From: Cupriavidus necator
GTDB taxonomy: Bacteria; Pseudomonadota; Gammaproteobacteria; Burkholderiales; Burkholderiaceae
Assembly: GCF_016127575.1 (NCBI RefSeq)
Contig: NZ_CP066019.1
Coordinates: forward strand, 2,880,001-2,912,000
Direction of reading: 5' to 3'
DNA length: 32,000 nt
In this document: in pieces, positions 581-26,979 of the stretch
Layout of the letters: every line of letters starts with the position of its first letter
How positions within the stretch are numbered: the stretch's first letter is position 1
Made by a program: the position numbers and the translations under genes
The notes under the pieces: model-generated
Databases searched by the model: none
What the model was told of the DNA's origin: nothing
Seen by the model: the letters and a program-made list of their open reading frames with translations, nothing else

Positions 581-2815
581 ATGAAAGTCGTTAACATGCA
601 TGGCAGCGTTCCGGATGCCGGGGACGAGGGGCGCGACCCGCTCGATTTGACCGTCCATGTCGATGTGCTGTTGCGCTACCGCTGGACCTTTCTCGCTGTG
701 GCAGGCATGTTCATCTGTGTCGGAATGCTCTATGCCCTCCTGGCGACGCCTCTCTATCGCACCGACATCCTGGTGCAAGTGGAAGACATCAATGGCGATG
801 CCAGCGCTGGCAGGCTGGCAACCAACATCTCGCCGATATTCGACGCCAAGCTGGTTGCAGCGGCGGAGATTGAACTGCTGCGGTCCCGGATGGTGGTAGG
901 AAAGGCGGTTGACGACCTGCGCCTCGATATCGAGGCCGCAGCACGCTATTTCCCCCTGATCGGCCGGGGCCTCGCAAGCTTCAGTTCCGGCCTGTCCACG
1001 CCCGGCCTGTTCGGCTGGGGCGGCTTCGCGTGGGGCAAGGAATCGATCAGCGTGGCCCGGCTCGAAGTACCGCCGCAGATGGAGGGGAGCAAGATCTACC
1101 TCACCGCGCTGGGGGGCAACCAGTTCCGTGTCACCTTTGACAGCGACGATACCAAGGTGACGGGCACCGTGGGCTTGCCCCTGAAGATTGCTACGGGACG
1201 CGGCACGGTTACCCTGCTGGTCAGCCATCTCGATGGCCGCGCCGGCTGCAAATTTGTGCTGCGCCGCCTGCCACGCGCCACCGCCATTGCCAGGCTGCAA
1301 GAACAGTTGATGATCTCTGAGCGCGGAAAGGAGAGCGGCGTGATCGGCGTATCGTTGAATGGCAATTCGCCGACGATGATCGCGGCCATCCTCAATGAGA
1401 TCGCCGGTGCGTACGTCGACCAGAACGTTCGCCGCAAAGCCGCCGAAGCGGAGAAGTCACTCGCCTTCCTGGAGCAGCAATTGCCGCAGCTTCGAGAGCA
1501 GGTCGAGGAAGCCGAAACCCGCTACAACGCGATGCGTAGCCAGCGCGGCACGATCGACCTGGGCGAGGAATCCAAGCTGGTCCTGGTTCAGTCGATGCAG
1601 ATCCAGACCAGGCTGCAGGAGCTGCACCGGCAGCGCCAGGAGCTGGCCACGCGCTTTACCAACGGCCACCCGGCACTTGAAGCCATCGATGGCCAGATCG
1701 GTCGTCTCAACGCACAGATCAATGCCATTGCCGGGCAGATCCAGAAGCTTCCCGACGTCGAGCAGCACGTGCTGCGCCTCATGCGCGATGTCAAGGTCAG
1801 CACTGAAATGCTGCAGTCCCTGCTCAATGACATCCAGCACCTCAAGCTGATCAAGGCCAGCAAGGTCGGTACCGCACGCCTGGTCGATCCCGCCGGCGTG
1901 CCGGTCAAGCCGGAGAGTCCCAACCGCCCACTGATCACCGGCCTATCCATAGTACTCGGCCTCTTTGCGGGTCTACTGGTGATCATTGCGCGCCACTCGC
2001 TGGATGGCGGCGTCAACGACGCCGACGAGGTCGAGCGACAGACTGGCATGACCGTCTATTCGACCATTCCCTTCAGCGCACAGCAGGCACAGGTGCAGTC
2101 GGCGGGCATGGAGGATGCGGGCCTGCTGGCGCGCGTGATGCCTAAGGATCCTGCCATGGAGAGCCTGCGCATTTTCCGCACCGTACTGCAGTCCGCGCTG
2201 GCAGGCAGCGACAACCGTGTCGTTGTGATCAGCAGCCCGTCGCCGGGCGTCGGCAAGTCCTTCATCTGTGCCAACCTAGCCGCCATTGCCGCCAGCGGTT
2301 GCCGCGTGGTGCTGATCGACGCCGACCTGCGCCGCGGTGGCCTGCACCATTGCTTCGGCGTGCAGCGCAGCCCCGGTCTGGCCGACGTGCTGATGGGCAT
2401 GCCGCCGGACCGGGCGTTGCGGCGTCAGGTGGTGAAGGGCCTTGATTTCATCGCGACCGGTATGGAAGCACCGCACGCGGCCGACATGCTGCAGAGCGCG
2501 GGCATGGGCGCCCTGCTCGATGCACTGAGGTCGCGCTATGACTTGGTTGTGATCGATACGCCACCGGTACTGGCTGCTGCCGACGCCGGCATTCTCGCCG
2601 GCAAGGCAGACGCGGTGTTTCTGGTGGCGCGCGCGGAAATGACAACCGCGGGCGAGCTGCGGGCCTCCCAACAGGCGATCCGCCGGGCGGGTGCCGAGGT
2701 CGAGGGCGTGCTGTTCAACGGTCCCCACGTCCAGGGCCGCTGGTATCGCTCGCACAATCACTACGGCAAGTACCGCTATCTCAACGAGTACCGCTGCGCG
2801 GCGAAGCAGGCCTGA
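581..2815 (+). CDS. Polysaccharide co-polymerase / tyrosine autokinase (Wzc/Etk/EpsB-type BY-kinase)
   Basis: 744-aa ORF with an N-terminal TM segment, a long coiled-coil periplasmic region and a second TM segment (LITGLSIVLGLFAGLLVII). Walker A is SPSPGVGKS, Walker A' is VVLIDADLRRG and Walker B is DLVVIDTPP. The C-terminal Tyr cluster is WYRSHNHYGKYRYLNEY. GGAAGGGA lies just upstream of the ATG at 581. An alternative ATG at 596 cannot be excluded. Confidence 0.9.
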   Translation: MKVVNMHGSVPDAGDEGRDPLDLTVHVDVLLRYRWTFLAVAGMFICVGMLYALLATPLYRTDILVQVEDINGDASAGRLATNISPIFDAKLVAAAEIELLRSRMVVGKAVDDLRLDIEAAARYFPLIGRGLASFSSGLSTPGLFGWGGFAWGKESISVARLEVPPQMEGSKIYLTALGGNQFRVTFDSDDTKVTGTVGLPLKIATGRGTVTLLVSHLDGRAGCKFVLRRLPRATAIARLQEQLMISERGKESGVIGVSLNGNSPTMIAAILNEIAGAYVDQNVRRKAAEAEKSLAFLEQQLPQLREQVEEAETRYNAMRSQRGTIDLGEESKLVLVQSMQIQTRLQELHRQRQELATRFTNGHPALEAIDGQIGRLNAQINAIAGQIQKLPDVEQHVLRLMRDVKVSTEMLQSLLNDIQHLKLIKASKVGTARLVDPAGVPVKPESPNRPLITGLSIVLGLFAGLLVIIARHSLDGGVNDADEVERQTGMTVYSTIPFSAQQAQVQSAGMEDAGLLARVMPKDPAMESLRIFRTVLQSALAGSDNRVVVISSPSPGVGKSFICANLAAIAASGCRVVLIDADLRRGGLHHCFGVQRSPGLADVLMGMPPDRALRRQVVKGLDFIATGMEAPHAADMLQSAGMGALLDALRSRYDLVVIDTPPVLAAADAGILAGKADAVFLVARAEMTTAGELRASQQAIRRAGAEVEGVLFNGPHVQGRWYRSHNHYGKYRYLNEYRCAAKQA

Positions 2816-2907
2816 GCGCGGCACGTGGGGCACCCGGCGTCAGGTAGCGCAACTTTTTGCCAATCCGTCTCCTGGCGGCCACGAGTTCTGCGCAACGGTT
2901 CTGGCTG

Positions 2908-3906
2908 TTATTTTGCCTGGCGAAATACACCGCGAGCCATATGTAATGCTGCGAACAACCGGTTTGAGATGTTGGAGAACGTGCGTTGCTGTCCTCCGCA
3001 GCTTCTTCTCACCGATTCAACAGACTGAATCATGCTGCCCTCGAAATCAAGGCAGTTTAATTTCAACTCGTTCCGGGTATATTGAATGGCATCCCAGATT
3101 AGTTTTATTCCGGCACCGCTTGTGCGCAGCTTCGGGTCCTCGCCGACCATGTGGACATAAGAGGACTTCTGGTCCCACGTTAAATAAAGCGCGGAATGTA
3201 TCTGGTTGTCATCGTCGACGGCCATGAAAATCTTTCTTGCATTTCTTTCCAGCAAGGCTTGGTCGTGTCTTTCTATAAAGCCAAAGGAATATGGCATTTT
3301 CATGCCCTGGCGATCAAAGGTCTTTTTGTTGATGGCGTAGAATTCTGATACATCATTGGTGAAGCGTGTTTTGACAATTTTCTCTGCTTTGCGAATCTTG
3401 TTGCGCGCGGCGCTGTTGAACCGGCTGAAGACACCGTCCAGATCGGCGATGTCATCGATAACGTAAGTGTAACGTACAGCCTCGGAAAATCCTTTCCAAT
3501 AGAATGGCAATAGATTTCTGAGGGAATGATGAATATTGAAGCTAACGACATGTGATTTTGGGAGCAGTGCCACGATTTCCCTGACTGCCTCCATTTCAAA
3601 ATCAATGCGATTGTGCTCGGATATATTCGACGGATAATTTAGCCAGAGCTGAAAGCTTTGCGTCAACTTTGGCATCCTTTGAATTATGAGTGGCCCCCTG
3701 CGTTCGGTGTAGTAAGGGAGTGCGGCAATTGGCTTGTTATTCTTCATGACAATCGCCGCGTCCCATTCGCCATTCTGGCAGACCGAGTCAAGCCACCAGT
3801 CTTTGGATGAGATCGCTATCTGCGGATTTTCCGAGCATATGGTGCGATATGCCTTCCTGGTCTCGCTTTCAGCGGTGATAGCTGGCACGGGCTTGGTTTG
3901 GCTCAT
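2908..3906 (-). CDS. FemAB/BioF2-like GNAT-superfamily acyltransferase (Acetyltransf_6-like), in a low-GC patch
   Basis: 332-aa ORF with ATG at 3904..3906 preceded by GAGGAA. The layout fits FemAB-like/CelD-like acyltransferases found in polysaccharide loci: ...FNSAARNKIRKAEK..., ...ALYLTWDQKSSYVHMVGEDPKLRTSGAGIKLIWDAIQY...LDFEGS. The family assignment rests on motif recall only. The DNA is clearly AT-richer than its flanks. Confidence 0.7.
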   Translation of the reverse strand: MSQTKPVPAITAESETRKAYRTICSENPQIAISSKDWWLDSVCQNGEWDAAIVMKNNKPIAALPYYTERRGPLIIQRMPKLTQSFQLWLNYPSNISEHNRIDFEMEAVREIVALLPKSHVVSFNIHHSLRNLLPFYWKGFSEAVRYTYVIDDIADLDGVFSRFNSAARNKIRKAEKIVKTRFTNDVSEFYAINKKTFDRQGMKMPYSFGFIERHDQALLERNARKIFMAVDDDNQIHSALYLTWDQKSSYVHMVGEDPKLRTSGAGIKLIWDAIQYTRNELKLNCLDFEGSMIQSVESVRRSCGGQQRTFSNISNRLFAALHMARGVFRQAK

Positions 3907-4105
3907 GATTCCTCACAACGCTCCATAGTTGGTTTCTCTCAGAAACACTCGCCTTGAGATATTGCCCCTGGCGGCCCCAGCATTTGCCTGCGAGGCCTTC
4001 CTTTTTTCGTTAAAGGAATTATTCCCGCGTGGTAGTGCGGTCGCAACGGGCCCGCGTGTGTCAGCGAACGCAGGATTGGCTCGCACTGGCTCATGCCGGT
4101 CGGCT

Positions 4106-6145
4106 TCAGCTCGCCTTGCTTGAATTCGACAGTGTTGCGAGTTGCGGGTCGGTGCCGATCTCCGGGGGCGGCTGCTGGCGCGATGCAACCCCGCGCAGTG
4201 CATGCTGCAACGGCTGGCTCGGCTCCCGCTGCGAGGGCGCCGCCACCTTGCGGCCCGGCGACTCCAGTGAGCTGTACGGCGCGTACTCGACTACCAGGCT
4301 CTGAATGACGGTCTGGATCTCGAGTTCGTCACGGGTATCGCAGGCGGCAAAGAGGCGCTCAAGCATCTCGTGCAACTCTGCCTCCGCGATGAGCGGTTCG
4401 TTCGAGCACAAGATGCGCTCATGCTCGCTGGCCGTCACCTCACCACCGATGAGGAGCTCTTCAAACAGCTTCTCTCCCGGGCGCAGCCCCACGACCTTGA
4501 TCTCGATGTCCCCGGCGGGGTTCTTGCGCGTCTTTTCCGTCAGGCCGGACATCTCGATCATCGTGCGGGCCAGGTCGATGATGCGGACGGGCTTGCCCAT
4601 GTCCAGCACGAAGACTTCCCCACCTTTGGCCATCGCGCCGGCCTGGATCACCAACTGGGCTGCTTCGGGGATCAGCATGAAGAAGCGGATGACGTCCGGA
4701 TGCGTGATCGTGACGGGCCCGCCCTCACGGATCTGTTTGCGGAACAGTGGTACCACGGACCCGGATGAGCCCAGTACATTGCCGAAGCGCACCATCGCGA
4801 ACGTTGTCCGCGTGTTGGGGCGCGTGGCTGCGGCTTGGAAAACGAGTTCCGCAATGCGCTTGCTGGCGCCCATCACGTTGGTGGGCCGTACCGCCTTGTC
4901 GGTGGAAACCAGCACGCAGGTCTGAACGCCGAAATGGTCTGCCAGATCGGCAATGGTCAGGGAGCCCAGCACATTGTTGCGGATCCCTTCGGGCATGTTC
5001 TTTTCGACCAGCGGCACATGCTTGTAGGCGGCGGCGTGATAGATGGTGTCGACCTGCTGGCCGCGCAGTGCGGCTGACACGGCAGTGGCGTCGCACACAG
5101 AGCCGATCCGCGCCGTGATCTGCAGGTCAGGGTAGCGCTGGCGCAGTTCCTGTTCGATCGCGTAGAGGGCATATTCGGAGTGGTCGAAGAGAATTAGGCG
5201 CTGGGGTTCCTGCGAAGCGATCTGACGGCACAGCTCCCTGCCGATGGAGCCACCCGCACCGGTCACCATGACCGTCTTGCGTTGCGTGCATTTGGCGAAC
5301 AGGTCTACCCGTGGCGGGACGATGTCACGGCCCAGCAAGTCTTCCACGCTGATATCCCGAATCGATTGCACGGTGATCTTGCGATCCACAAGCTCGAGAA
5401 GAGAGGGCAACGTGCGCACGCTGACCGAATAGCGGTGCAGCTTGTCGACGATCTGGCGGCGGCGCTCGATTGGCAGGGACGGAACGGCCAGTACGACTTC
5501 ATTGATGGCGTGCCGCTGGATCTCCTTGCGCACGTGGTTGCTGTGATGGACTGGAAGGTCGGCAACGACCTTGCCCTCCAGCGCGAAGTCATCGTCGAAG
5601 AAGCAGACGGCCTTGTGGCCCAGGCTGGCGCGCATGGCGATGGCGAGCTGGAAGCCGGCCTCGCCGGCGCCGAATATCCCCACGCGCAAGCTGGCGCGCT
5701 CGTTGCGGGCCAGCAGGCTCTGCCGCGTGCGCGTCAGCAAGGCGCGCGCCACGAAGCGCGAGATCACGACATAGGAAAAGGCGATGAACCAGTAGATCAG
5801 CAGGCCGGTGCGAGGCAGCCGGTCGAGGTGCATGAGGAACGACAGCGCATAGGTGAGTCCGACGATGCCGGCCAGGCTGGTGCCGGTGGTCCAAAGGACT
5901 TTCAGGTCGAAATACCGGACGACGGTCCGATACAGTCCGCTGAGCGAAAACACGGGAATCGTGCAGGCGGCAATGATCAGCGGCGGCGTGATGCCGTACT
6001 GTGCCAGCAACTCGAAGTTGCCGGCGCGCAGGAATAGTGCGAAAGCAAAGCACAGCGGCAGCGCAAGCAGGTCCGCCGCAATCATCAGCGCGACTTTGCG
6101 ACGTCTTGGCAGGGCAATCAGCCAGCGCGAGAGCGGTTTGGTCAT
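4106..6145 (-). CDS. Membrane-anchored UDP-HexNAc 4,6-dehydratase (CapD/PglF/WbpM family polysaccharide biosynthesis protein)
   Basis: 679-aa ORF with four to five N-terminal TM helices. It has the Rossmann motif VMVTGAGGSIGRELCRQI, the catalytic YxxxK in HAAAYKHVP and the STDKAVRPTNVMGASKRIAE signature. GGAGG lies 9 nt upstream of the ATG at 6143..6145. Confidence 0.9.
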   Translation of the reverse strand: MTKPLSRWLIALPRRRKVALMIAADLLALPLCFAFALFLRAGNFELLAQYGITPPLIIAACTIPVFSLSGLYRTVVRYFDLKVLWTTGTSLAGIVGLTYALSFLMHLDRLPRTGLLIYWFIAFSYVVISRFVARALLTRTRQSLLARNERASLRVGIFGAGEAGFQLAIAMRASLGHKAVCFFDDDFALEGKVVADLPVHHSNHVRKEIQRHAINEVVLAVPSLPIERRRQIVDKLHRYSVSVRTLPSLLELVDRKITVQSIRDISVEDLLGRDIVPPRVDLFAKCTQRKTVMVTGAGGSIGRELCRQIASQEPQRLILFDHSEYALYAIEQELRQRYPDLQITARIGSVCDATAVSAALRGQQVDTIYHAAAYKHVPLVEKNMPEGIRNNVLGSLTIADLADHFGVQTCVLVSTDKAVRPTNVMGASKRIAELVFQAAATRPNTRTTFAMVRFGNVLGSSGSVVPLFRKQIREGGPVTITHPDVIRFFMLIPEAAQLVIQAGAMAKGGEVFVLDMGKPVRIIDLARTMIEMSGLTEKTRKNPAGDIEIKVVGLRPGEKLFEELLIGGEVTASEHERILCSNEPLIAEAELHEMLERLFAACDTRDELEIQTVIQSLVVEYAPYSSLESPGRKVAAPSQREPSQPLQHALRGVASRQQPPPEIGTDPQLATLSNSSKAS

Positions 6146-6453
6146 TGGCCGGAACCTCCGCGCACCAGAACGGGCAGGGGCCTGGCGGCGACCAGGCTGC
6201 GATAGGGACGCCCCATTTGCGGGGCGGACAAAGAAGGTTGCGCACGGTTATGCATTGTCTTAAGGCTTCTTCTATGGGCAGCTCCACCGGCTGGTGGCCT
6301 CTGGAAGGGACATGCCCTTTCAGAGGCTTCCGATTTGCCCGTTTACCCGTCAGCGACTGGGTGCTTTCGACACCATTCCCGACTGAAACAATTATTGTTG
6401 TTGGTGCGTCCCTGGCAACGCAGCAGCGTGGGTTTGCGTACGCAGCGGCAGGT

Positions 6454-20267: not shown

Positions 20268-21053
20268 TCAGTCGCGCAGGCCCGGGCGGGTTTCGCTTTC
20301 CACCCAGACGTTGGCGCTGTCGACGCCGGCCGGCGACAACTCCATGCGGTATTCATAGCGGTCCGGGCGGTACTGGCCGAGCAGCAACTGGACCGGGCGC
20401 CCGGCCGCGTCCTTGACCACGCGGCGCACCGCCAGCAGCGCGCCGCCTACCGGCACGTCCAGCAGCGGCGCCACCACCACGTCGGCCAGGCGCGCGGACA
20501 GCACCTGGCTGGCACGGCCCAGCTTCACGCCGCCGGCCTCCAGCAGCCGCAGCACCGGCCGCTCTTCCAGGGACTGGCGCGTGATCGGCCGGCCCAGGTC
20601 GGCGGGCAGGTAGACCGTGATATGCGACAGCGGCCGGTTGCGGTAGTGGCGCACGCGCACGATCTTCACCACCGGATCGCCCGGCTCGATCTGCAGCGAT
20701 TCGGCCACATCGGGCGTGGCATGGACTTCGTCGATCGAGATCACCTTCACCGACGTCTTCTGGCCCATGTCGATGATGTTGTCGAGCAGGCTGGTGCCGC
20801 GTTCCTCGCCGGCCGCCGTCGCCGGGCGCACCGGATGCGGGTTGACGAAGGTGCCAAGCCCGCGGTGGCGGCGCACCAGGCCTTCTTGCACCAGGCGGTC
20901 GAACACGCGCCGCATGGTCACGCGCGAGGCGTGGAACTGCTTGGCCAGGTCGATCTCGCCCGGCAAGGGGCCCTGGCCGAAGCGGCCTTCCACGATCTGC
21001 TGGCGCAATACCACGTAAATCTGGTGATACAGGGGAACGACGGCTTCACTCAT
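20268..21053 (-). CDS. GntR-family (HutC-type, UTRA domain) transcriptional regulator
   Basis: 261 aa. The N-terminal wHTH is YHQIYVVLRQQIVEGRFGQGPLPGEIDLAKQFHASRVTMRRVFDRLVQEGLVRRHRGLGTFV, followed by a C-terminal UTRA-like effector domain. Confidence 0.9.
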   Translation of the reverse strand: MSEAVVPLYHQIYVVLRQQIVEGRFGQGPLPGEIDLAKQFHASRVTMRRVFDRLVQEGLVRRHRGLGTFVNPHPVRPATAAGEERGTSLLDNIIDMGQKTSVKVISIDEVHATPDVAESLQIEPGDPVVKIVRVRHYRNRPLSHITVYLPADLGRPITRQSLEERPVLRLLEAGGVKLGRASQVLSARLADVVVAPLLDVPVGGALLAVRRVVKDAAGRPVQLLLGQYRPDRYEYRMELSPAGVDSANVWVESETRPGLRD

Positions 21054-21777: not shown

Positions 21778-23292
21778 ATGAAAAAGACCTTACTGGCGTC
21801 GGCTATCGCCATGGCATTTGCGGGACAGGCCTGGGCAAATCCGACCAATAACAACGACGTGGTAAGAGGTGGCGGCGACAACACGCAAACCGCCACAGCG
21901 ACCTCGACGCAGAGTGGCAGCGGCGCGGCGGCAAACGAATATTCGACCGCAGTCCAGGCCAATGACAGCAGCACCAACACCAGAACCACCACGGTTGGCG
22001 TCAACAAGACCAAGACCACGACCAACTCGAACAACAGGAGCAGGATCGACTTTGACCATGGCGTAGGCAACGCGGGCTCCAACGGTGGCAGCGCAACCTC
22101 CAGCGTAAGCAACGCCTTCAACACCAGCAAGGCACTGGCGATCAGCAAGCTGAATGGCACGGTTTCCAACAACAGCATTGGCCCGATCGGCAATTACGCC
22201 ACCAACTGGGGTAACGCGAATGGTGCAGCCGGTGGCCGGGGCGGCAATGGCTTTGGCGGTACCGGCGAAGGCGGGCGCGGCGGCAACGGCGGCAACGGCG
22301 GTAACGGCGGCAGCGGCGGCTCCGGTGGCAGCGCTACCAACGGTAGCGCCACCAATGGCGACGCCACCAACGGCAGCGCCAACGCTGGTAATGGCGGTGC
22401 CGGCGGCAAGGCGATTGGCTGGGCCGGCAGTGGCGGTGACGGCAAGGCATATGGCGGCAGCGCACTCTCCGCAGCGGGCAGCAAGGGCGGCAGCGGCGGC
22501 GATGCTTATGGCAAGGGCGGCGGCGCTCTGAGCGCATCGCTCGGCGCCGGCGGCCGCGGCGGCAGTGCCGGCGCGATCGGCGGTGGTGGCCTGGGTGCCA
22601 GCGGCGCCCTGGGCGGCTTGGCAGGTTCGGCCGGCGGCTCAGGTGGTAGCAGCGGCAATGCCAACGGTGCGGGTGGCGACACTACCACTGGCGGCGCAGG
22701 CGGCGCAGGCGGCGCAGCGGCCGGTACCAACACGGCTGGCGCAGGCACCGGTTCGGGCGGCGCAGGTACCGCGAGTGGCGGTGCGGGCGGTGCCGGAACG
22801 GCAGCTGCAGGCGCGACCGGCGGAGCCGGCAGCGGCACCGGCGGTGCCGGTGGCGCGGGCGGCGCGGCGACCTCGACCGCAACGGCGGGCGCGGCAAGCG
22901 GCACCGGCGGCGCGGGCGGCACGCAAGCCAGCGTTGGCGGCGCGGGCGGTACTGGCGGTTCGGCCACGAACGGCAGCGCAACGAGTTCGGCCTCCAATGG
23001 CAGCTCCACGGCTGGCAACGGTGCGGTGGGTGCTACCGGCGGCGCGGGCGGCGCGGGCGGCACTGGCAATGGCGGCACTGGCGGCACCGGCAACGGCGCA
23101 GTCGGCGGCGCTGGCGGTAATGGCGGTTACAACATTGTTGACGCGGGCACCTTCAATATGTCCAACACCATGACCAGCGTTGGTCAAACGGCGGCGGGCA
23201 TCATGATGGCCAACCAGAACAGCGGCGCTGCCTCGCTCGTGCAGCAAAGCGTGAACGTTCAGGCCAACCTGCAGGTCGGCGGCAACCGGTAA
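21778..23292 (+). CDS. Secreted 504-aa glycine-rich (PGRS-like) repeat protein; putative major fibre/matrix subunit of the Fap-like operon
   Basis: Start at ATG 21778 with GGGAG 6 nt upstream. The signal peptide is MKKTLLASAIAMAFAGQAWA|N. There is a DVVRGG motif at aa 27-32. The N-terminal region is Thr/Asn/Ser-rich. By hand count, aa 151-450 contain about 134 Gly in 300 residues, as GGAGG/GGNGG/GGSGG units. No charged residue occurs between aa 302 and 454, and the mature part has no Cys. The C-terminal core NIVDAGTFN...AAGIMMANQNSGAASLVQQSVNVQANL is paralogous to gene 2. Confidence 0.85.
   Translation: MKKTLLASAIAMAFAGQAWANPTNNNDVVRGGGDNTQTATATSTQSGSGAAANEYSTAVQANDSSTNTRTTTVGVNKTKTTTNSNNRSRIDFDHGVGNAGSNGGSATSSVSNAFNTSKALAISKLNGTVSNNSIGPIGNYATNWGNANGAAGGRGGNGFGGTGEGGRGGNGGNGGNGGSGGSGGSATNGSATNGDATNGSANAGNGGAGGKAIGWAGSGGDGKAYGGSALSAAGSKGGSGGDAYGKGGGALSASLGAGGRGGSAGAIGGGGLGASGALGGLAGSAGGSGGSSGNANGAGGDTTTGGAGGAGGAAAGTNTAGAGTGSGGAGTASGGAGGAGTAAAGATGGAGSGTGGAGGAGGAATSTATAGAASGTGGAGGTQASVGGAGGTGGSATNGSATSSASNGSSTAGNGAVGATGGAGGAGGTGNGGTGGTGNGAVGGAGGNGGYNIVDAGTFNMSNTMTSVGQTAAGIMMANQNSGAASLVQQSVNVQANLQVGGNR
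22279..22377 (+). repeat. In-frame tandem codon repeats inside the Gly-rich gene
   Basis: Six 9-nt units occupy 22279..22332: GGCGGCAAC, GGCGGCAAC, GGCGGTAAC, GGCGGCAGC, GGCGGCTCC, GGTGGCAGC. Three 15-nt units encoding ATNG[S/D] occupy 22333..22377. Looser GGAGG-type periodicity continues to about 23127. Confidence 0.8.
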
Positions 23293-23477: not shown

Positions 23478-23912
23478 ATGCAATCGGTCCGCTTCGCCGT
23501 CGGCGCATTCGCGACGGTCTTACTCGCCTGGCCAGTGCTGCAGGCGCACGCTGAGCCGCCAGGGCTGGACGCCGCCATGGCAGCGGCGCGCGCTGCTTCT
23601 GGCGCTGCCCCGGACACGGCTGCAATCACCGCACAGCCGACGGCCGCAACTTCCTTGTTCGGAGGGGTGGCGAAAGCCGTACCCGTGTCTAAACTGGATG
23701 ACATCCGTGGCGGCGCCGAGGTCACGGTCAACGATATGCGCCTGCACGGTACCGTGGCCGACAACGCCGCGGTCAATATTCTGTCCGGCACCAACAACAT
23801 CGCGGACGGGGCCTTCTCGAATGCGGCAGGGATTCCCACCGCGATCCAGAACTCGGGCTCCAACGTACTGATCCAGAACGCCACTATCGTCAACGTCCAG
23901 TTCAAGCAATGA
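23478..23912 (+). CDS. Small secreted Asn/Gln/Ala-rich protein with a double-glycine-type pro-region (short paralogue of gene 1; FapB-like role proposed)
   Basis: Start at ATG 23478, preceded by AGGGGAGA. The signal peptide is MQSVRFAVGAFATVLLAWPVLQAHA|E. An Ala/Pro/Thr-rich pro-region follows, ending in KLDDIRGG at aa 72-79 (nt 23691..23714). The 65-aa C-terminal core is AEVTVNDMRLHGTVADNAAVNILSGTNNIADGAFSNAAGIPTAIQNSGSNVLIQNATIVNVQFKQ. Confidence 0.8.
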   Translation: MQSVRFAVGAFATVLLAWPVLQAHAEPPGLDAAMAAARAASGAAPDTAAITAQPTAATSLFGGVAKAVPVSKLDDIRGGAEVTVNDMRLHGTVADNAAVNILSGTNNIADGAFSNAAGIPTAIQNSGSNVLIQNATIVNVQFKQ

Positions 23913-24607
23913 AGCCGCTGCGAAACCTGTTGGCGTCTGTACCGTTCTTGCTGGCCGCGGGGGGCGTTCCATGTGCCCAGGCTGCCGACACCCTGATATA
24001 CGGGCCGGTCGGCGAGTCCTACAACGTCCGGGTCACGAGCGTGCGCGAGGCTCGCTTCAAGTCCACGATCCGGCAGCAGTTCGACTTCAGCTGCGGCTCG
24101 GCCGCGGTGGCCACGCTGCTGAGCTACCAGTACGGCCATCCGATGAATGAGGCCACGGTCTTCCAGAACATGTACCTCAACGGCGACCAGCAGAAGATCC
24201 GCGCCGAGGGGTTCTCGCTGCTCGACATGAAGCGCTTCCTGGCCGCGCTCGGCTATGAGGCGGACGGCTACGAGCTGCCACTGTCCAAGCTGGAAGAGAC
24301 GCAGGTGCCGGCCATCGTGCTGATCGTGGAGAACGGTTACCACCATTTCGTGGTGGTCAAGGGCGTGAAGGGCGACCGCGTGCTGATCGGCGATCCCGCA
24401 CGCGGCACGCGCGCGATGTCACGCGAGCATTTCGAGCAGATCTGGGACAGCCAGCTGCTGTTCGTGATCCATAACCGCACCGAACGGGCGCGGTTCAACC
24501 TTGCAGCCGACTGGCGCGTTGCGCCGAGCGGTCCTTACTGGATGGGAGTCAACCGGGATAGCTTGTTCTTCACCGTCATGCCCAAGCATGGCGCGGGCGA
24601 TTTTTGA
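23909..24607 (+). CDS. Stand-alone, signal-peptide-bearing C39-family cysteine peptidase (FapD-like)
   Basis: The ATG overlaps the gene 2 stop (ATGA at 23909..23912). The signal peptide is MKPLRNLLASVPFLLAAGGVPCAQA|A. C39 motifs are Gln plus the catalytic Cys in RQQFDFSCGSAAVATLL (Cys62, nt 24092..24094), and His/Asp in GYHHFVVVKGVKGDRVLIGDPA. No ABC-transporter domain is attached. Confidence 0.85.
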   Translation: MKPLRNLLASVPFLLAAGGVPCAQAADTLIYGPVGESYNVRVTSVREARFKSTIRQQFDFSCGSAAVATLLSYQYGHPMNEATVFQNMYLNGDQQKIRAEGFSLLDMKRFLAALGYEADGYELPLSKLEETQVPAIVLIVENGYHHFVVVKGVKGDRVLIGDPARGTRAMSREHFEQIWDSQLLFVIHNRTERARFNLAADWRVAPSGPYWMGVNRDSLFFTVMPKHGAGDF

Positions 24608-24617
24608 GGAACGCATC

Positions 24618-25463
24618 ATGTTGCAGACTTCCTTCCCGACCCCAGCAGCCCCTCGCAGCGCCGGTCATGCGGCCGCGGCGATGCTGCTCGGGGCCGGTTT
24701 GGCCTGTGCCGGCACGGCGCAGGCCACCATGCTGCCACAGCCCGACGCCCTCGACGCGTCGGCGCTTCCATTGCAGGGGGCCATGCCCTCGAGCGACGGG
24801 CAGGACCAAAACCCTCTGGCTGCCGCACGCGGCAGCATGGCCGGCTGGAAACCGGTAGCACACGAAAAACTCGACGACATGCGGGGCGGCTTCGAAGTGC
24901 CGGGCCTGCAGGTTTCGTTCGGTATCGAACGCGCGGTGTACATCAACGGGGCCCTGGTGGTTGCCACCAGCATTAACATCCCCGATGTCAGCCGTATCAC
25001 CGCCGACCAGGCTGCGCGGCTTGCCTCGACGCTGGGCCCGGCCATCGTTGCCAGCACCAATGCGGCGGTCGCCAACGCGCTGGCGGCGGCGGGCGCGGCC
25101 GGTTCGGATGGGAGCGCCACCTCGGCGGCCAATGGCGCCTCGGCCAGCAGCACCGGCACGTCCGGGGCCGGTTCGGGCGCCAGCGGTGCGGCGGGCTTGC
25201 CGGCGGCGGTGGTGAATACGGCCACCGGTCAGGTCGTGAGCAATGGGCTGTTGAACGTGATCCAGAACGGCCCGGGCAATGCGGCATCGGTGGGATCGCT
25301 GGCGGGGACGCCAACGACCGTGATCCAGAACACCTTGAACAACCAGAGCATCCGGAGCCTGATGACAATCGACGCAAGCGTAAATACGCTGCAGGCATTC
25401 CGGTCGCAGTTGGCCAACACCACGCTGAACAACGCGCTGATGCGGGCCGCAAGCATGAGGTAG
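24618..25463 (+). CDS. Secreted 281-aa Ala/Gly/Ser/Asn-rich protein with a double-glycine-type pro-region (third cargo paralogue, in the FapE position)
   Basis: Start at ATG 24618 with GAGGA 7 nt upstream, 10 nt after the peptidase stop. The signal peptide ends ...AGLACAGTAQA|T. KLDDMRGG lies at aa 84-91 (nt 24867..24890). There is a central low-complexity AAAGAAGSDGSATSAANGASASSTGTSGAGSGASGAAG stretch. The C-terminal region has LAGTPTTVIQNTLNNQ and LLNVIQNGPGNAAS motifs related to genes 1 and 2. Confidence 0.8.
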   Translation: MLQTSFPTPAAPRSAGHAAAAMLLGAGLACAGTAQATMLPQPDALDASALPLQGAMPSSDGQDQNPLAAARGSMAGWKPVAHEKLDDMRGGFEVPGLQVSFGIERAVYINGALVVATSINIPDVSRITADQAARLASTLGPAIVASTNAAVANALAAAGAAGSDGSATSAANGASASSTGTSGAGSGASGAAGLPAAVVNTATGQVVSNGLLNVIQNGPGNAASVGSLAGTPTTVIQNTLNNQSIRSLMTIDASVNTLQAFRSQLANTTLNNALMRAASMR

Positions 25464-25539: not shown

Positions 25540-26979
25540 ATGAAGAAGCGGTCGATGCAGGGCATTCGCAATGCGGGATGCTCGACGTTACTGTTGCTCG
25601 GCGGCCTGGCGCAGGCCCAGACGCCGCCGGATGCGGGACCACCCGCAGCCGGACTGGAAGCACTGCAGAAGGAGCTTGCCGAACAGGCCACCCAGCTCGA
25701 CGCCATGAAGCGGGCGCTGGCCGAACAGGAGGCGCTGATCCGCGAACTGCGTAACGTGATCGGCACCGAGGTGCTGGCCAACAAGCGCGGCGGCCAGCGC
25801 GCGGGGCCAGGCGTGTCGCCGTCCGACAATGCCACCAACGCCGCTACCGCGGCGGCCGCTGCCAGCGCCACCCAGTCAGCGCCCAACGCGGTCAACAACC
25901 CGCAGCAGATCATTCTCCAGCCACCGCAGGACATGGCCCAGGGTCCGCAGGCGGGCGAGTCCGCCGACCGGCAGACCGTGGCCCTGGAAGAACCCGTGGG
26001 CCGCCCGCCGGAGGAAGACCGCCGTCCGCCTGAGATCGCGCCGATCATCGACCAGCCCGGCGTGCTGACCGCCCAGGGCAAGCTGGTGATCGAGCCCGGC
26101 TTCCAGTACGGCTATTCGTCCAATAACCGCGTCGCGCTGGTCGGCTACACGGTCATCCCGGCCATCCTGATCGGCCTGGTCGATGTGCGCGAAGTCAAGA
26201 CCTCGACCTACATCCCGTCGGTAGCGTTTCGCTACGGCCTGACCAAGCGGCTGGAAATCGAAGCCAAGGTGCCTTACGTGCACTCATCGGGCCAGACAGT
26301 CAGCCGCGAGGTCTTCACCGGCACGGCCGTCGACCGCGTGTTCAATGCGAGCGGCAGCGGTATCGGCGACGTCGAGGCGACGGTGCGCTACCAGCTCAAC
26401 TACGGCAACGAGAAGATTCCGTACTTCGTCGGCTGGCTGCGCTACAAGTCCAATACCGGCACCGACCCGTTCGAGGTCGTGACCGACTGCGTGACGCGCT
26501 GCGTGGGCAATGCCACCGGCACCGGCCTGCCGCTCGGGTTGCCCACCGGCACCGGCTTCCAGGCGATCCAGCCCGGCATCACCTGGCTGCTGCCGACTGA
26601 CCCGGCGGTGTTCTTCGGCACCTTCAGCTACCTGCACAACTTTGCGCGCGACAACGTGAGCCGCACCGTGCTGAACGGCGAGAAGGAGAATCTCGGCAAG
26701 ATCGCCCCCGGCGACATCTTCGAGTTCAGCTTCGGCATGGGCCTGTCGCTCAATGAGAAGGCGTCGTTCAGCATCGGCTATGACCAGGCCATCATCTGGC
26801 CGACCAAGCAGAACGGCCAGACCGTGCCGGGCTCGGTGCGCGTGACCCAGGGCACCTTGCTGGTGGGCTATTCGTACCGCTTCAACAACCGCTACACGGT
26901 GAACCTTTCAGTGGGTGCGGGGCTGACGCGCGACACCCCCGACCTGCAGGTGAACCTGCGCCTGCCAATCACTTTCTGA
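25540..26979 (+). CDS. Outer-membrane beta-barrel channel with N-terminal coiled coil and long linker (FapF-like / MetA-pathway-type OM transporter)
   Basis: GGGGGAGGAAG lies upstream of ATG 25540. The signal peptide is ...LLLLGGLAQA|Q. The heptad-like helix GLEALQKELAEQATQLDAMKRALAEQEALIRELRNVIG spans aa 38-75. A Pro/Ala/Gln/Asn-rich linker of about 95 aa follows. The remainder shows alternating-hydrophobic beta-strand patterning (VIEPGFQYGYSS, GIGDVEATVRYQL, LLVGYSYRF) and ends in the OMP-type terminus NLRLPITF. Confidence 0.85.
   Translation: MKKRSMQGIRNAGCSTLLLLGGLAQAQTPPDAGPPAAGLEALQKELAEQATQLDAMKRALAEQEALIRELRNVIGTEVLANKRGGQRAGPGVSPSDNATNAATAAAAASATQSAPNAVNNPQQIILQPPQDMAQGPQAGESADRQTVALEEPVGRPPEEDRRPPEIAPIIDQPGVLTAQGKLVIEPGFQYGYSSNNRVALVGYTVIPAILIGLVDVREVKTSTYIPSVAFRYGLTKRLEIEAKVPYVHSSGQTVSREVFTGTAVDRVFNASGSGIGDVEATVRYQLNYGNEKIPYFVGWLRYKSNTGTDPFEVVTDCVTRCVGNATGTGLPLGLPTGTGFQAIQPGITWLLPTDPAVFFGTFSYLHNFARDNVSRTVLNGEKENLGKIAPGDIFEFSFGMGLSLNEKASFSIGYDQAIIWPTKQNGQTVPGSVRVTQGTLLVGYSYRFNNRYTVNLSVGAGLTRDTPDLQVNLRLPITF

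Follow-up and report, generated by a model that had tools for sequence, protein, structure and literature searches.

Putative internal double-glycine leaders in two cargo proteins and the channel of a Fap-like secretion cassette of Cupriavidus necator

Which sequence does a C39 cysteine peptidase recognize when it acts as a stand-alone enzyme in the periplasm? The question is raised by a stretch of 32,000 nucleotides (nt) from Cupriavidus necator (contig NZ_CP066019.1, positions 2,880,001 to 2,912,000; hereafter the window), in which five co-directional genes on the plus strand, at 21.7 to 27.0 kb, constitute a five-gene Fap-like outer membrane secretion cassette in a Cupriavidus-type genome. 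Fap amyloid secretion requires periplasmic C39 peptidases of the FapD type, and the substrate and recognition sequence of these enzymes have been an open matter since 2017, when FapD was reported to act in the periplasm and its Cys38Ala substitution to abolish secretion, the Fap proteins being without canonical C39 sequences and the target of FapD unknown (Rouse et al. 2017, PMC5557850). Reviews up to December 2025 describe FapD only as "thought to process" FapE and FapF, and we found no paper that defines a substrate motif for stand-alone periplasmic C39 peptidases, as the preliminary description of this locus had presumed. In the cassette, one motif occurs in two cargo proteins and in the channel, beside a periplasmic C39 peptidase, and is therefore a strong, testable candidate cut site. 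We consider a two-step maturation, in which Sec export would be followed by a periplasmic C39 cut after Gly-Gly, the best-supported explanation, with a probability of roughly 55%.

The motif was first seen in the products of genes 2 and 4. Gene 2 (nt 23478 to 23912, plus strand) encodes an exported precursor of 144 amino acids (aa), in which a signal peptide (23478 to 23552) and a variable spacer rich in Ala and Pro precede a leader-like segment and a conserved core of 65 aa (23715 to 23909). Gene 4 (24618 to 25463, plus strand) encodes a FapE-like exported precursor of 281 aa, whose signal peptide (24618 to 24725), variable spacer, and leader-like segment are followed by a conserved domain of 190 aa that harbors a low-complexity insertion (24891 to 25460). 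The residues following the Sec sites are Glu26 and Thr37, respectively. The leader-like segment of gene 2 is GVAKAVPVSKLDDIRGG (aa 63 to 79; nt 23664 to 23714, plus strand), with a proposed cut after Gly79, and that of gene 4 is GWKPVAHEKLDDMRGG (aa 76 to 91; nt 24843 to 24890, plus strand), with a proposed cut after Gly91; the respective site sequences are AVPVSKLDDIRGG, followed by AEVTV, and WKPVAHEKLDDMRGG, followed by FEVPG. Both contain the octapeptides from which the preliminary description had started, KLDDIRGG before AEV in gene 2 (nt 23691 to 23714, aa 72 to 79) and KLDDMRGG before FEV in gene 4 (nt 24867 to 24890, aa 84 to 91). Its translations match the DNA, and with gene starts at 23478 and 24618 its spacers of 54 and 55 aa, its cores of 65 and 190 aa, and the peptidase residue Cys62 all agree. 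The unusual placement that it had pointed out, away from the extreme N terminus, holds as well, since both precursors begin with a Sec-type signal peptide followed by a spacer.

We then looked at how well the motif is kept among relatives, numbering positions from the proposed cut. The closest homologues of gene 2, from C. necator and Cupriavidus taiwanensis, are 85 to 97% identical to it. Residues L73, R77, G78, and G79 were invariant in 25 gene-2 relatives (Cupriavidus, Ralstonia, and Rhodoferax-like), in which the region between signal peptide and motif is hypervariable in sequence and length and the 65 residues downstream are highly conserved. For gene 4, a full HMMER scan (clusters at 50% identity) gave 1043 cluster representatives at E <0.001; L-x3-RGG was present in 144 of the 150 best of them, and L(-7), R(-3), G(-2), and G(-1) were invariant in 57 diverse relatives. 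A scan of one genome per species yielded 507 loci with a gene-4 relative, of which 80 were fetched, and all synteny counts refer to these 80. Among the 61 nonidentical gene-2 sites obtained from 76 loci, L(-7) and G(-2) were present in all, G(-1) in 60, and V(-12) in 55, while position -3 was R in 49, S in 10, and T in 2, giving the consensus [A/P](-13)-V(-12)...L(-7)-D-x-[I/Y/V](-4)-R-G-G. In gene 4, L(-7), R(-3), and both glycines were found in 65/65 unique sites, F(+1) in 63, V(-12) in 59, and W(-15) in 57, and the consensus is W(-15)-x-[P/A]-V(-12)-[S/A]-x-[D/E]-[R/K]-L(-7)-D-x-[M/L/V](-4)-R-G-G, followed by F-[D/E].

An RGG could also arise by chance in Gly- and Arg-rich proteins of a high-GC genome, and it does so in the Gly-rich part of gene-1 orthologues, a DVVRGG sequence in gene 1 of the window being one such case. 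Amino acid composition predicts, for L-x3-RGG, 0.0017 occurrences in gene 2, 0.0099 in gene 4, and 0.024 in gene 5, and each of these proteins contains exactly one. As the motif is moreover invariant across alpha-, beta-, and gammaproteobacteria, its conservation refutes a chance origin in genes 2, 4, and 5, to which we assign a negligible probability.

The spacer gave a different picture. An alignment of orthologues had been proposed as a test for conservation of both the motif and the length of the spacer; the former was borne out by the invariant L/R/G/G residues described above, but the latter was not. In gene-4 relatives, 17 to 761 aa precede the motif and, in most of them, 115 to 128 aa follow it; the preceding region is variable in gene-2 relatives too. 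Given spacers of about 0 to >700 aa elsewhere, the near-equal spacers of about 55 aa in genes 2 and 4 are coincidental. In gene-4 relatives, the motif forms the border between a hypervariable N-terminal region and a conserved C-terminal part. Long gene-4 spacers are rich in Ala, Pro, Ser, and Thr, and no Pfam domain was found in them in several relatives scanned; gene 4 itself and several relatives, long ones included, matched no Pfam or NCBIfam family. The minimal natural architecture consists of a signal peptide, some 15 to 18 residues, and the domain (Polymorphobacter and proteins P0233 and P0215). Since such proteins have nearly no spacer, the leader-like segment of about 15 residues would be the functional unit and the disordered spacer would be dispensable.

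The candidate enzyme is encoded between the two cargo genes. Gene 3 (nt 23909 to 24607, plus strand) specifies a 232-aa, Sec-exported, stand-alone C39 cysteine peptidase of the FapD/FilB type, which matched Pfam Peptidase_C39 (8.9e-25), NCBIfam FilB (1e-39), and NCBIfam FapD (NF058616; 6.7e-43), the last with 146.5 bits and thus under the equivalog cutoff of 330 bits. Its predicted catalytic residues, Gln56 (nt 24074 to 24076), Cys62 (24092 to 24094), His146 (24344 to 24346), and Asp162 (24392 to 24394), were invariant in 78/78 gene-3 copies. The closest solved relative by sequence is LahT150, a "double glycine motif protease" (6MPZ, 1.2e-8), and the next is PCAT1.

Classical double-glycine leaders, such as those of ComC/ComA, LagD, and the LahT and PCAT1 substrates, end in Gly-Gly, or alternatively in GA, GS, or AG, and have hydrophobic side chains at -4, -7, -12, and -15. 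Both features recur in the families of genes 2 and 4, so that the classical spacing noticed in the preliminary description applies to the families as a whole. The likeness to the PCAT1, LahT, ComA, LagD, and CvaB systems extends to a helical leader of about 15 residues and to a papain-like Cys/His/Asp peptidase with a Gln oxyanion residue. Several features set the cassette apart from these systems. Its leader is internal, with a Sec signal and 0 to >700 aa of disordered spacer in front of it; Arg(-3), which varies in classical leaders, is invariant or nearly so; the peptidase is free in the periplasm rather than fused to a cytoplasm-facing ATP-binding cassette (ABC) transporter, none of which is encoded in the cassette; and export would take place through a FapF-type outer membrane barrel. 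Models of bacteriocin leaders in Pfam and NCBIfam did not match the cassette proteins.

A third copy of the motif, absent from the preliminary description, is present in the channel. Gene 5 (nt 25540 to 26979, plus strand) encodes a FapF-like outer membrane beta-barrel of 479 aa with an N-terminal periplasmic coiled coil (about 25651 to 25764, heptads being visible in the sequence) and an Ala/Gly/Pro-rich linker. Where the coiled coil gives way to the linker, the protein carries LANKRGG (aa 79 to 85; nt 25774 to 25794, plus strand), which could be a third cut site. The protein matched NCBIfam FapF (NF058560; 9.2e-42) with 143.3 bits, under the equivalog cutoff of 700 bits, as well as FilC (5.8e-10) and, over aa 160 to 479, the FapF structure 5O67 in the PDB (6.9e-28); FapF itself is a trimer of 12-strand barrels with an N-terminal coiled coil. 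L-x3-R-[G/A]-[G/A/T] was found in gene 5 of 73/80 loci, and also in locus L085; among the 56 unique matched sites, position -2 was G in 48 and A in 8, and position -1 was G in 43, A in 10, and T in 3, the variants being RGG, RGA, RAG, and RAT. Within this clade, only small residues replace the two glycines (GA, AG, and GT).

How, then, does this cassette relate to the Pseudomonas Fap amyloid system? We compared it with the canonical fap operons of Aeromonas caviae (L081), whose genes were confirmed as FapB to FapF by NCBIfam, and Pseudomonas synxantha (L084), for which precomputed Pfam annotation gave FapBC and Peptidase_C39. As in Fap, all products carry Sec signals, gene 3 is FapD-like, gene 5 is FapF-like, gene 4 occupies the position of fapE, and the D-E-F order is identical. 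Gene 4 did not match NCBIfam FapE, but hhalign aligned its family with Aeromonas FapE over 58 columns (probability 91%, E = 9.5e-7), which suggests that gene 4 and FapE are remotely homologous, and superposed LDxMRGGFD..GLxVSFGIE of the gene-4 family on LAHLRGRYVSSHGISYFGIE of FapE. The differences are numerous. No FapA open reading frame (ORF) lies upstream in the window, although some true fap operons are without FapA as well; genes 1 and 2 matched no Pfam or NCBIfam family, neither Pfam FapBC nor NCBIfam FapB/C; the Fap repeat expression (G-x4-N-x3-G-x6-N) occurs 0 times in genes 1 and 2, against 2 to 3 times in Aeromonas and Pseudomonas FapB/C; the scores for FapD and FapF, like those for FilB and FilC, fall far short of the equivalog cutoffs; canonical FapE has R-G-R instead of R-G-G; and canonical FapF is devoid of the motif. 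Between the gene-2 family and Aeromonas FapB, hhalign aligned no more than 15 residues, at the motif (probability 0.75%, E = 0.075), a match too weak to use. The cassette is thus a paralogue of the Fap system and not a member of it. Cupriavidus basilensis OR16 was reported to have a complete fapA-F operon plus an "extra FapD and FapF" (Dueholm et al. 2013), and one of our loci (L024) is the present cassette in that strain.

Several observations weigh against processing at the motif. The AlphaFold2 (AF2) models are of modest to low confidence, with mean predicted local distance difference test (pLDDT) values of 65.5 for gene 4, modeled with the family alignment, and 50.7 for gene 2; for the latter, low confidence is what would be expected of a natively unfolded subunit. 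In gene 4, moreover, Phe(+1) and Asp/Glu(+2) are nearly invariant, so that the folded domain could already begin with the motif. We considered whether it is a helix-turn that caps the fold or fibril of the FapE-like and gene-2 domains, the likeness to a leader being coincidental. The motif is indeed contiguous with the conserved domain of gene 4, the downstream GL.VSFGIE is strongly conserved, and FapE has LRG.Y....G...FGIE in common with it. The same L-x3-R-G-G with V(-12) is found, however, in gene 2, whose sequence beyond the motif bears no relation to its gene-4 counterpart, and the motif recurs in the linker of gene 5, a membrane barrel. The models place a short helix on the motif, at EKLDDM (82 to 87) in gene 4 and at VSKLDDI (70 to 76) in gene 2, and both are of low confidence at Gly-Gly. 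Residues 90 to 92 of gene 4 (GGF) have pLDDT values of <50, and the confident, beta-rich domain starts only at residue 99. Foldseek with the gene-4 model returned nothing below E 0.7 from the PDB. As the periodicity at -4, -7, -12, and -15 is also left unexplained, we regard a purely structural role as quite improbable.

The opposing evidence further includes the channel site, where position -4 is Lys or Gln instead of a hydrophobic residue, and gene 1, the likely major subunit, which is without the motif. The strongest question is posed by FapE itself. At the site aligned with the motif, canonical FapE has L-x-x-L-R-G-R, invariant in 8 Aeromonas sequences, and P. synxantha has MAELRGR; hydrophobic(-7), hydrophobic(-4), R(-3), and G(-2) are thus kept, but position -1 is Arg. 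To our knowledge, Arg at P1 does not occur in any C39 site. This argues against a strict Gly-Gly requirement or for a role other than cleavage in some family members. Three readings are possible, namely, that FapD-type enzymes have a relaxed S1 pocket, that FapE is cut elsewhere, or that the ancestral role of the site is binding. Across the family, the sequences suggest the rule hydrophobic(-7)-x-x-hydrophobic(-4)-[R/S/T/A]-G(-2)-[G/A/R/K].

If binding were the sole function, the motif would be an uncut docking or targeting signal that tethers the unfolded cargo to a chaperone-like peptidase or to the FapF-like coiled coil, with processing taking place elsewhere. The C39-like domains of HlyB-type transporters do act as tethers or chaperones for their cargo. 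Besides the R-G-R of FapE, which is not a C39 cleavage sequence, such a role would account for the retention of the motif in proteins with nearly no spacer, where it must be needed for more than spacer removal. It would also fit the mass spectrometry (MS) tables for UK4 (Rouse et al. 2017, PMC5557850), in which the first FapE peptide starts at residue 72, about 30 residues past the motif. The same tables also fit the two-step maturation: FapE is not covered before residue 72, and FapF peptides cover residues 25 to 71 and, after the coiled coil, resume only at 132. The motif of P. synxantha FapE (residues 34 to 40) falls within the region for which there are no MS peptides, as a cut there would lead one to expect, although this is no proof. 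Docking alone is harder to reconcile with the invariant Gln/Cys/His/Asp set in all 78 peptidases, unlike in the degenerate C39-like chaperone domains, with the requirement for the catalytic Cys in Fap (PMC5557850), and with the restriction of positions -2 and -1 to small residues within the clade, as the S1/S2 pockets of a protease would impose. We thus consider a signal that is bound but never cut rather unlikely.

Searching with Aeromonas FapE retrieved only Aeromonas proteins, and the concatenated UK4 FapE peptides gave six fragments, one of which led to the P. synxantha fap locus. There, fapE (5646 to 6387) is frameshifted into an N-terminal ORF (5646 to 6056) and a C-terminal ORF (5989 to 6387), and only the 128-aa C-terminal product is present in the database, as "Fap system putative outer membrane protein."

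Returning to the two-step maturation, we propose that Sec export and signal peptidase cleavage would leave the gene-2 and gene-4 precursors unfolded, exposing a leader of about 15 residues of the form [A/P]-V(-12)...L(-7)-D-x-hydrophobic(-4)-R-G-G, in which a short amphipathic helix is followed by a flexible Gly-Gly. The gene-3 peptidase, through Gln56, Cys62, His146, and Asp162, would bind this leader in the manner of the peptidase domains of bacteriocin exporters and cut after Gly-Gly. The disordered spacer would thereby be removed, releasing a 65-aa gene-2 core and a 190-aa FapE-like gene-4 core with Ala80 and Phe92 as new N termini. These cores would then be handed over to the FapF-like, presumably trimeric channel formed by gene 5 and, outside the cell, would assemble with the gene-1 product through a shared C-terminal element of the form VIQN..N..IQ..T..N. 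Since the gene-5 motif lies between coiled coil and linker, the peptidase probably also trims, and thus gates, the channel. The preliminary description had already outlined the two steps. Motif invariance, synteny, the catalytic residues, the predicted helix, and the recurrence in three proteins speak for its proposal, whereas its gene-1 site and its constant spacer did not survive; it had also overlooked the relationship of gene 4 to FapE, together with the R-G-R found there.

More generally, the motif segment could be a second, periplasmic secretion signal, part of a widespread pathway that combines Sec, a double-glycine leader, and a free C39 peptidase to feed FapF-type channels, with the channel switched by the same cut and with the same rule specifying what FapD recognizes in FapE and, possibly, what FilB recognizes in FilA. 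We put this extension forward only tentatively. What appears to be new, judging from the sequences, is that, in a paralogue of the Fap system, both cargo and channel possess double-glycine leaders that look canonical yet are internal; in the periplasm, such leaders can function, or are at the very least retained, downstream of a Sec signal. As the site occurs in homologues of both FapE and FapF and in a third cargo, the question of the FapD substrate becomes directly testable, and the cassette supplies a sequence to mutate, predicted mature N termini, and a candidate peptide substrate. If the proposal is true, the logic of double-glycine processing would reach further than assumed, and it could provide export tags for FapF-type channels and inhibitors of biofilm matrix secretion.

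What does the first gene of the cassette contribute? Gene 1 (nt 21778 to 23292, plus strand; present in 74/80 loci) encodes a Sec-exported, Asn/Thr- and Gly-rich protein of 504 aa, which probably is the bulk fiber or matrix subunit. The DVVRGG sequence (21856 to 21873), previously taken for a shorter version of the site, is indeed present but is without Leu(-7) and is confined to the window and its nearest relative (L001), other orthologues being unrelated at this place. A conserved AANNGG segment of the gene-1 orthologues was rejected as well, as it does not follow the Leu(-7)/Arg(-3) pattern and is absent in some lineages, and no equivalent leader site was found further into the protein in the orthologues. 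Gene 1 looks like a gene-2-type domain interrupted by some 300 aa of Gly-rich inserted sequence: L.GTVS.N...GN.A.N.GNANG lies near aa 125, and the C-terminal element occupies aa 472 to 500. In its place, a Pro-rich antisense frame is at times annotated by gene callers (e.g., L085, 3329 to 4507).

The C-terminal element, about 25 residues of roughly (T)VIQN(S/T)..N..IQ..T..N, is common to genes 1, 2, and 4. It reads AAGIMMANQNSGAASLVQQSVNVQANLQV in gene 1 (nt 23191 to 23277, plus strand; assigned by reading the sequence) and TPTTVIQNTLNNQSIRSLMTIDAS in gene 4 (nt 25308 to 25379, plus strand), the latter being homologous to nt 23826 to 23900 of gene 2; between genes 2 and 4, hhalign gave a probability of 96.8% (E = 2.5e-10). 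The element is visible in alphaproteobacterial cassettes too and may be a stacking (fibril) or secretion element.

The cassette also resembles the Acinetobacter Fil pilus locus (filABCDEF), in that gene 3 matches FilB and gene 5 matches FilC; FilA, FilD, FilE, and FilF are without counterparts in the cassette. The FilA precursor of Acinetobacter baumannii (L082, 4401 to 5270) consists of a signal peptide and MQSMDDAALSAATGQ, followed by DGINIG; in this one sequence, Leu(-7) and Gly(-2) stand at the positions that they occupy in the motif of the cassette. This hints that FilB, likewise a C39 peptidase, may use a related site. In that locus, filB is seemingly split into two ORFs (5565 to 6002 and 6012 to 6404).

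With respect to distribution, gene 5 was found in 80/80 loci, gene 3 in 77, and gene 2 in 76, gene order was near-constant, and most missing genes belonged to loci at contig ends (e.g., L031, L033, and L034). The hosts include Cupriavidus, Ralstonia, Rhodanobacter, Dyella, Luteibacter, Lysobacter, Polaromonas, Caldimonas, and Pararobbsia, among others, and the cassette is kept across beta-, gamma-, and alphaproteobacteria. In the alphaproteobacterial cassettes (Polymorphobacter and Croceicoccus), the gene-4 counterparts carry LATMRGG or LARQRGG about 18 aa past the signal peptide, and the gene-2 counterpart has L-x3-A-G-[K/R]. Two distant members of the gene-4 family, one with a 760-aa spacer, are encoded directly downstream of a Peptidase_C39 gene; a FapF-like match on a Vibrio plasmid (L086) had no annotated C39 neighbor. 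One 520-aa protein (P0131) starts within C39 peptidase sequence and runs into a gene-4-like protein with LEESRGG; it is either a natural fusion of peptidase and cargo or a gene-calling artifact.

Looking at the surroundings, a gene for a VpsR-like sigma-54 activator adjoins both the canonical Pseudomonas fap operon (L084, 7791 to 9113) and a distant cassette member (L085, 1343 to 2680), which suggests shared regulation. In the window, a divergent GntR-type regulator gene (20268 to 21053) lies upstream of the cassette. About 15 kb upstream, at 581 to 6145, there is a gene cluster of the exopolysaccharide/capsule type, with a Wzz/tyrosine-kinase-like gene (581 to 2815) and a CapD/WbqP-like gene (4106 to 6145), both labeled by sequence reading without a family scan. 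Between these two, a minus-strand gene (2908 to 3906) has a GC content of 0.48, compared to about 0.65, and was probably acquired horizontally.

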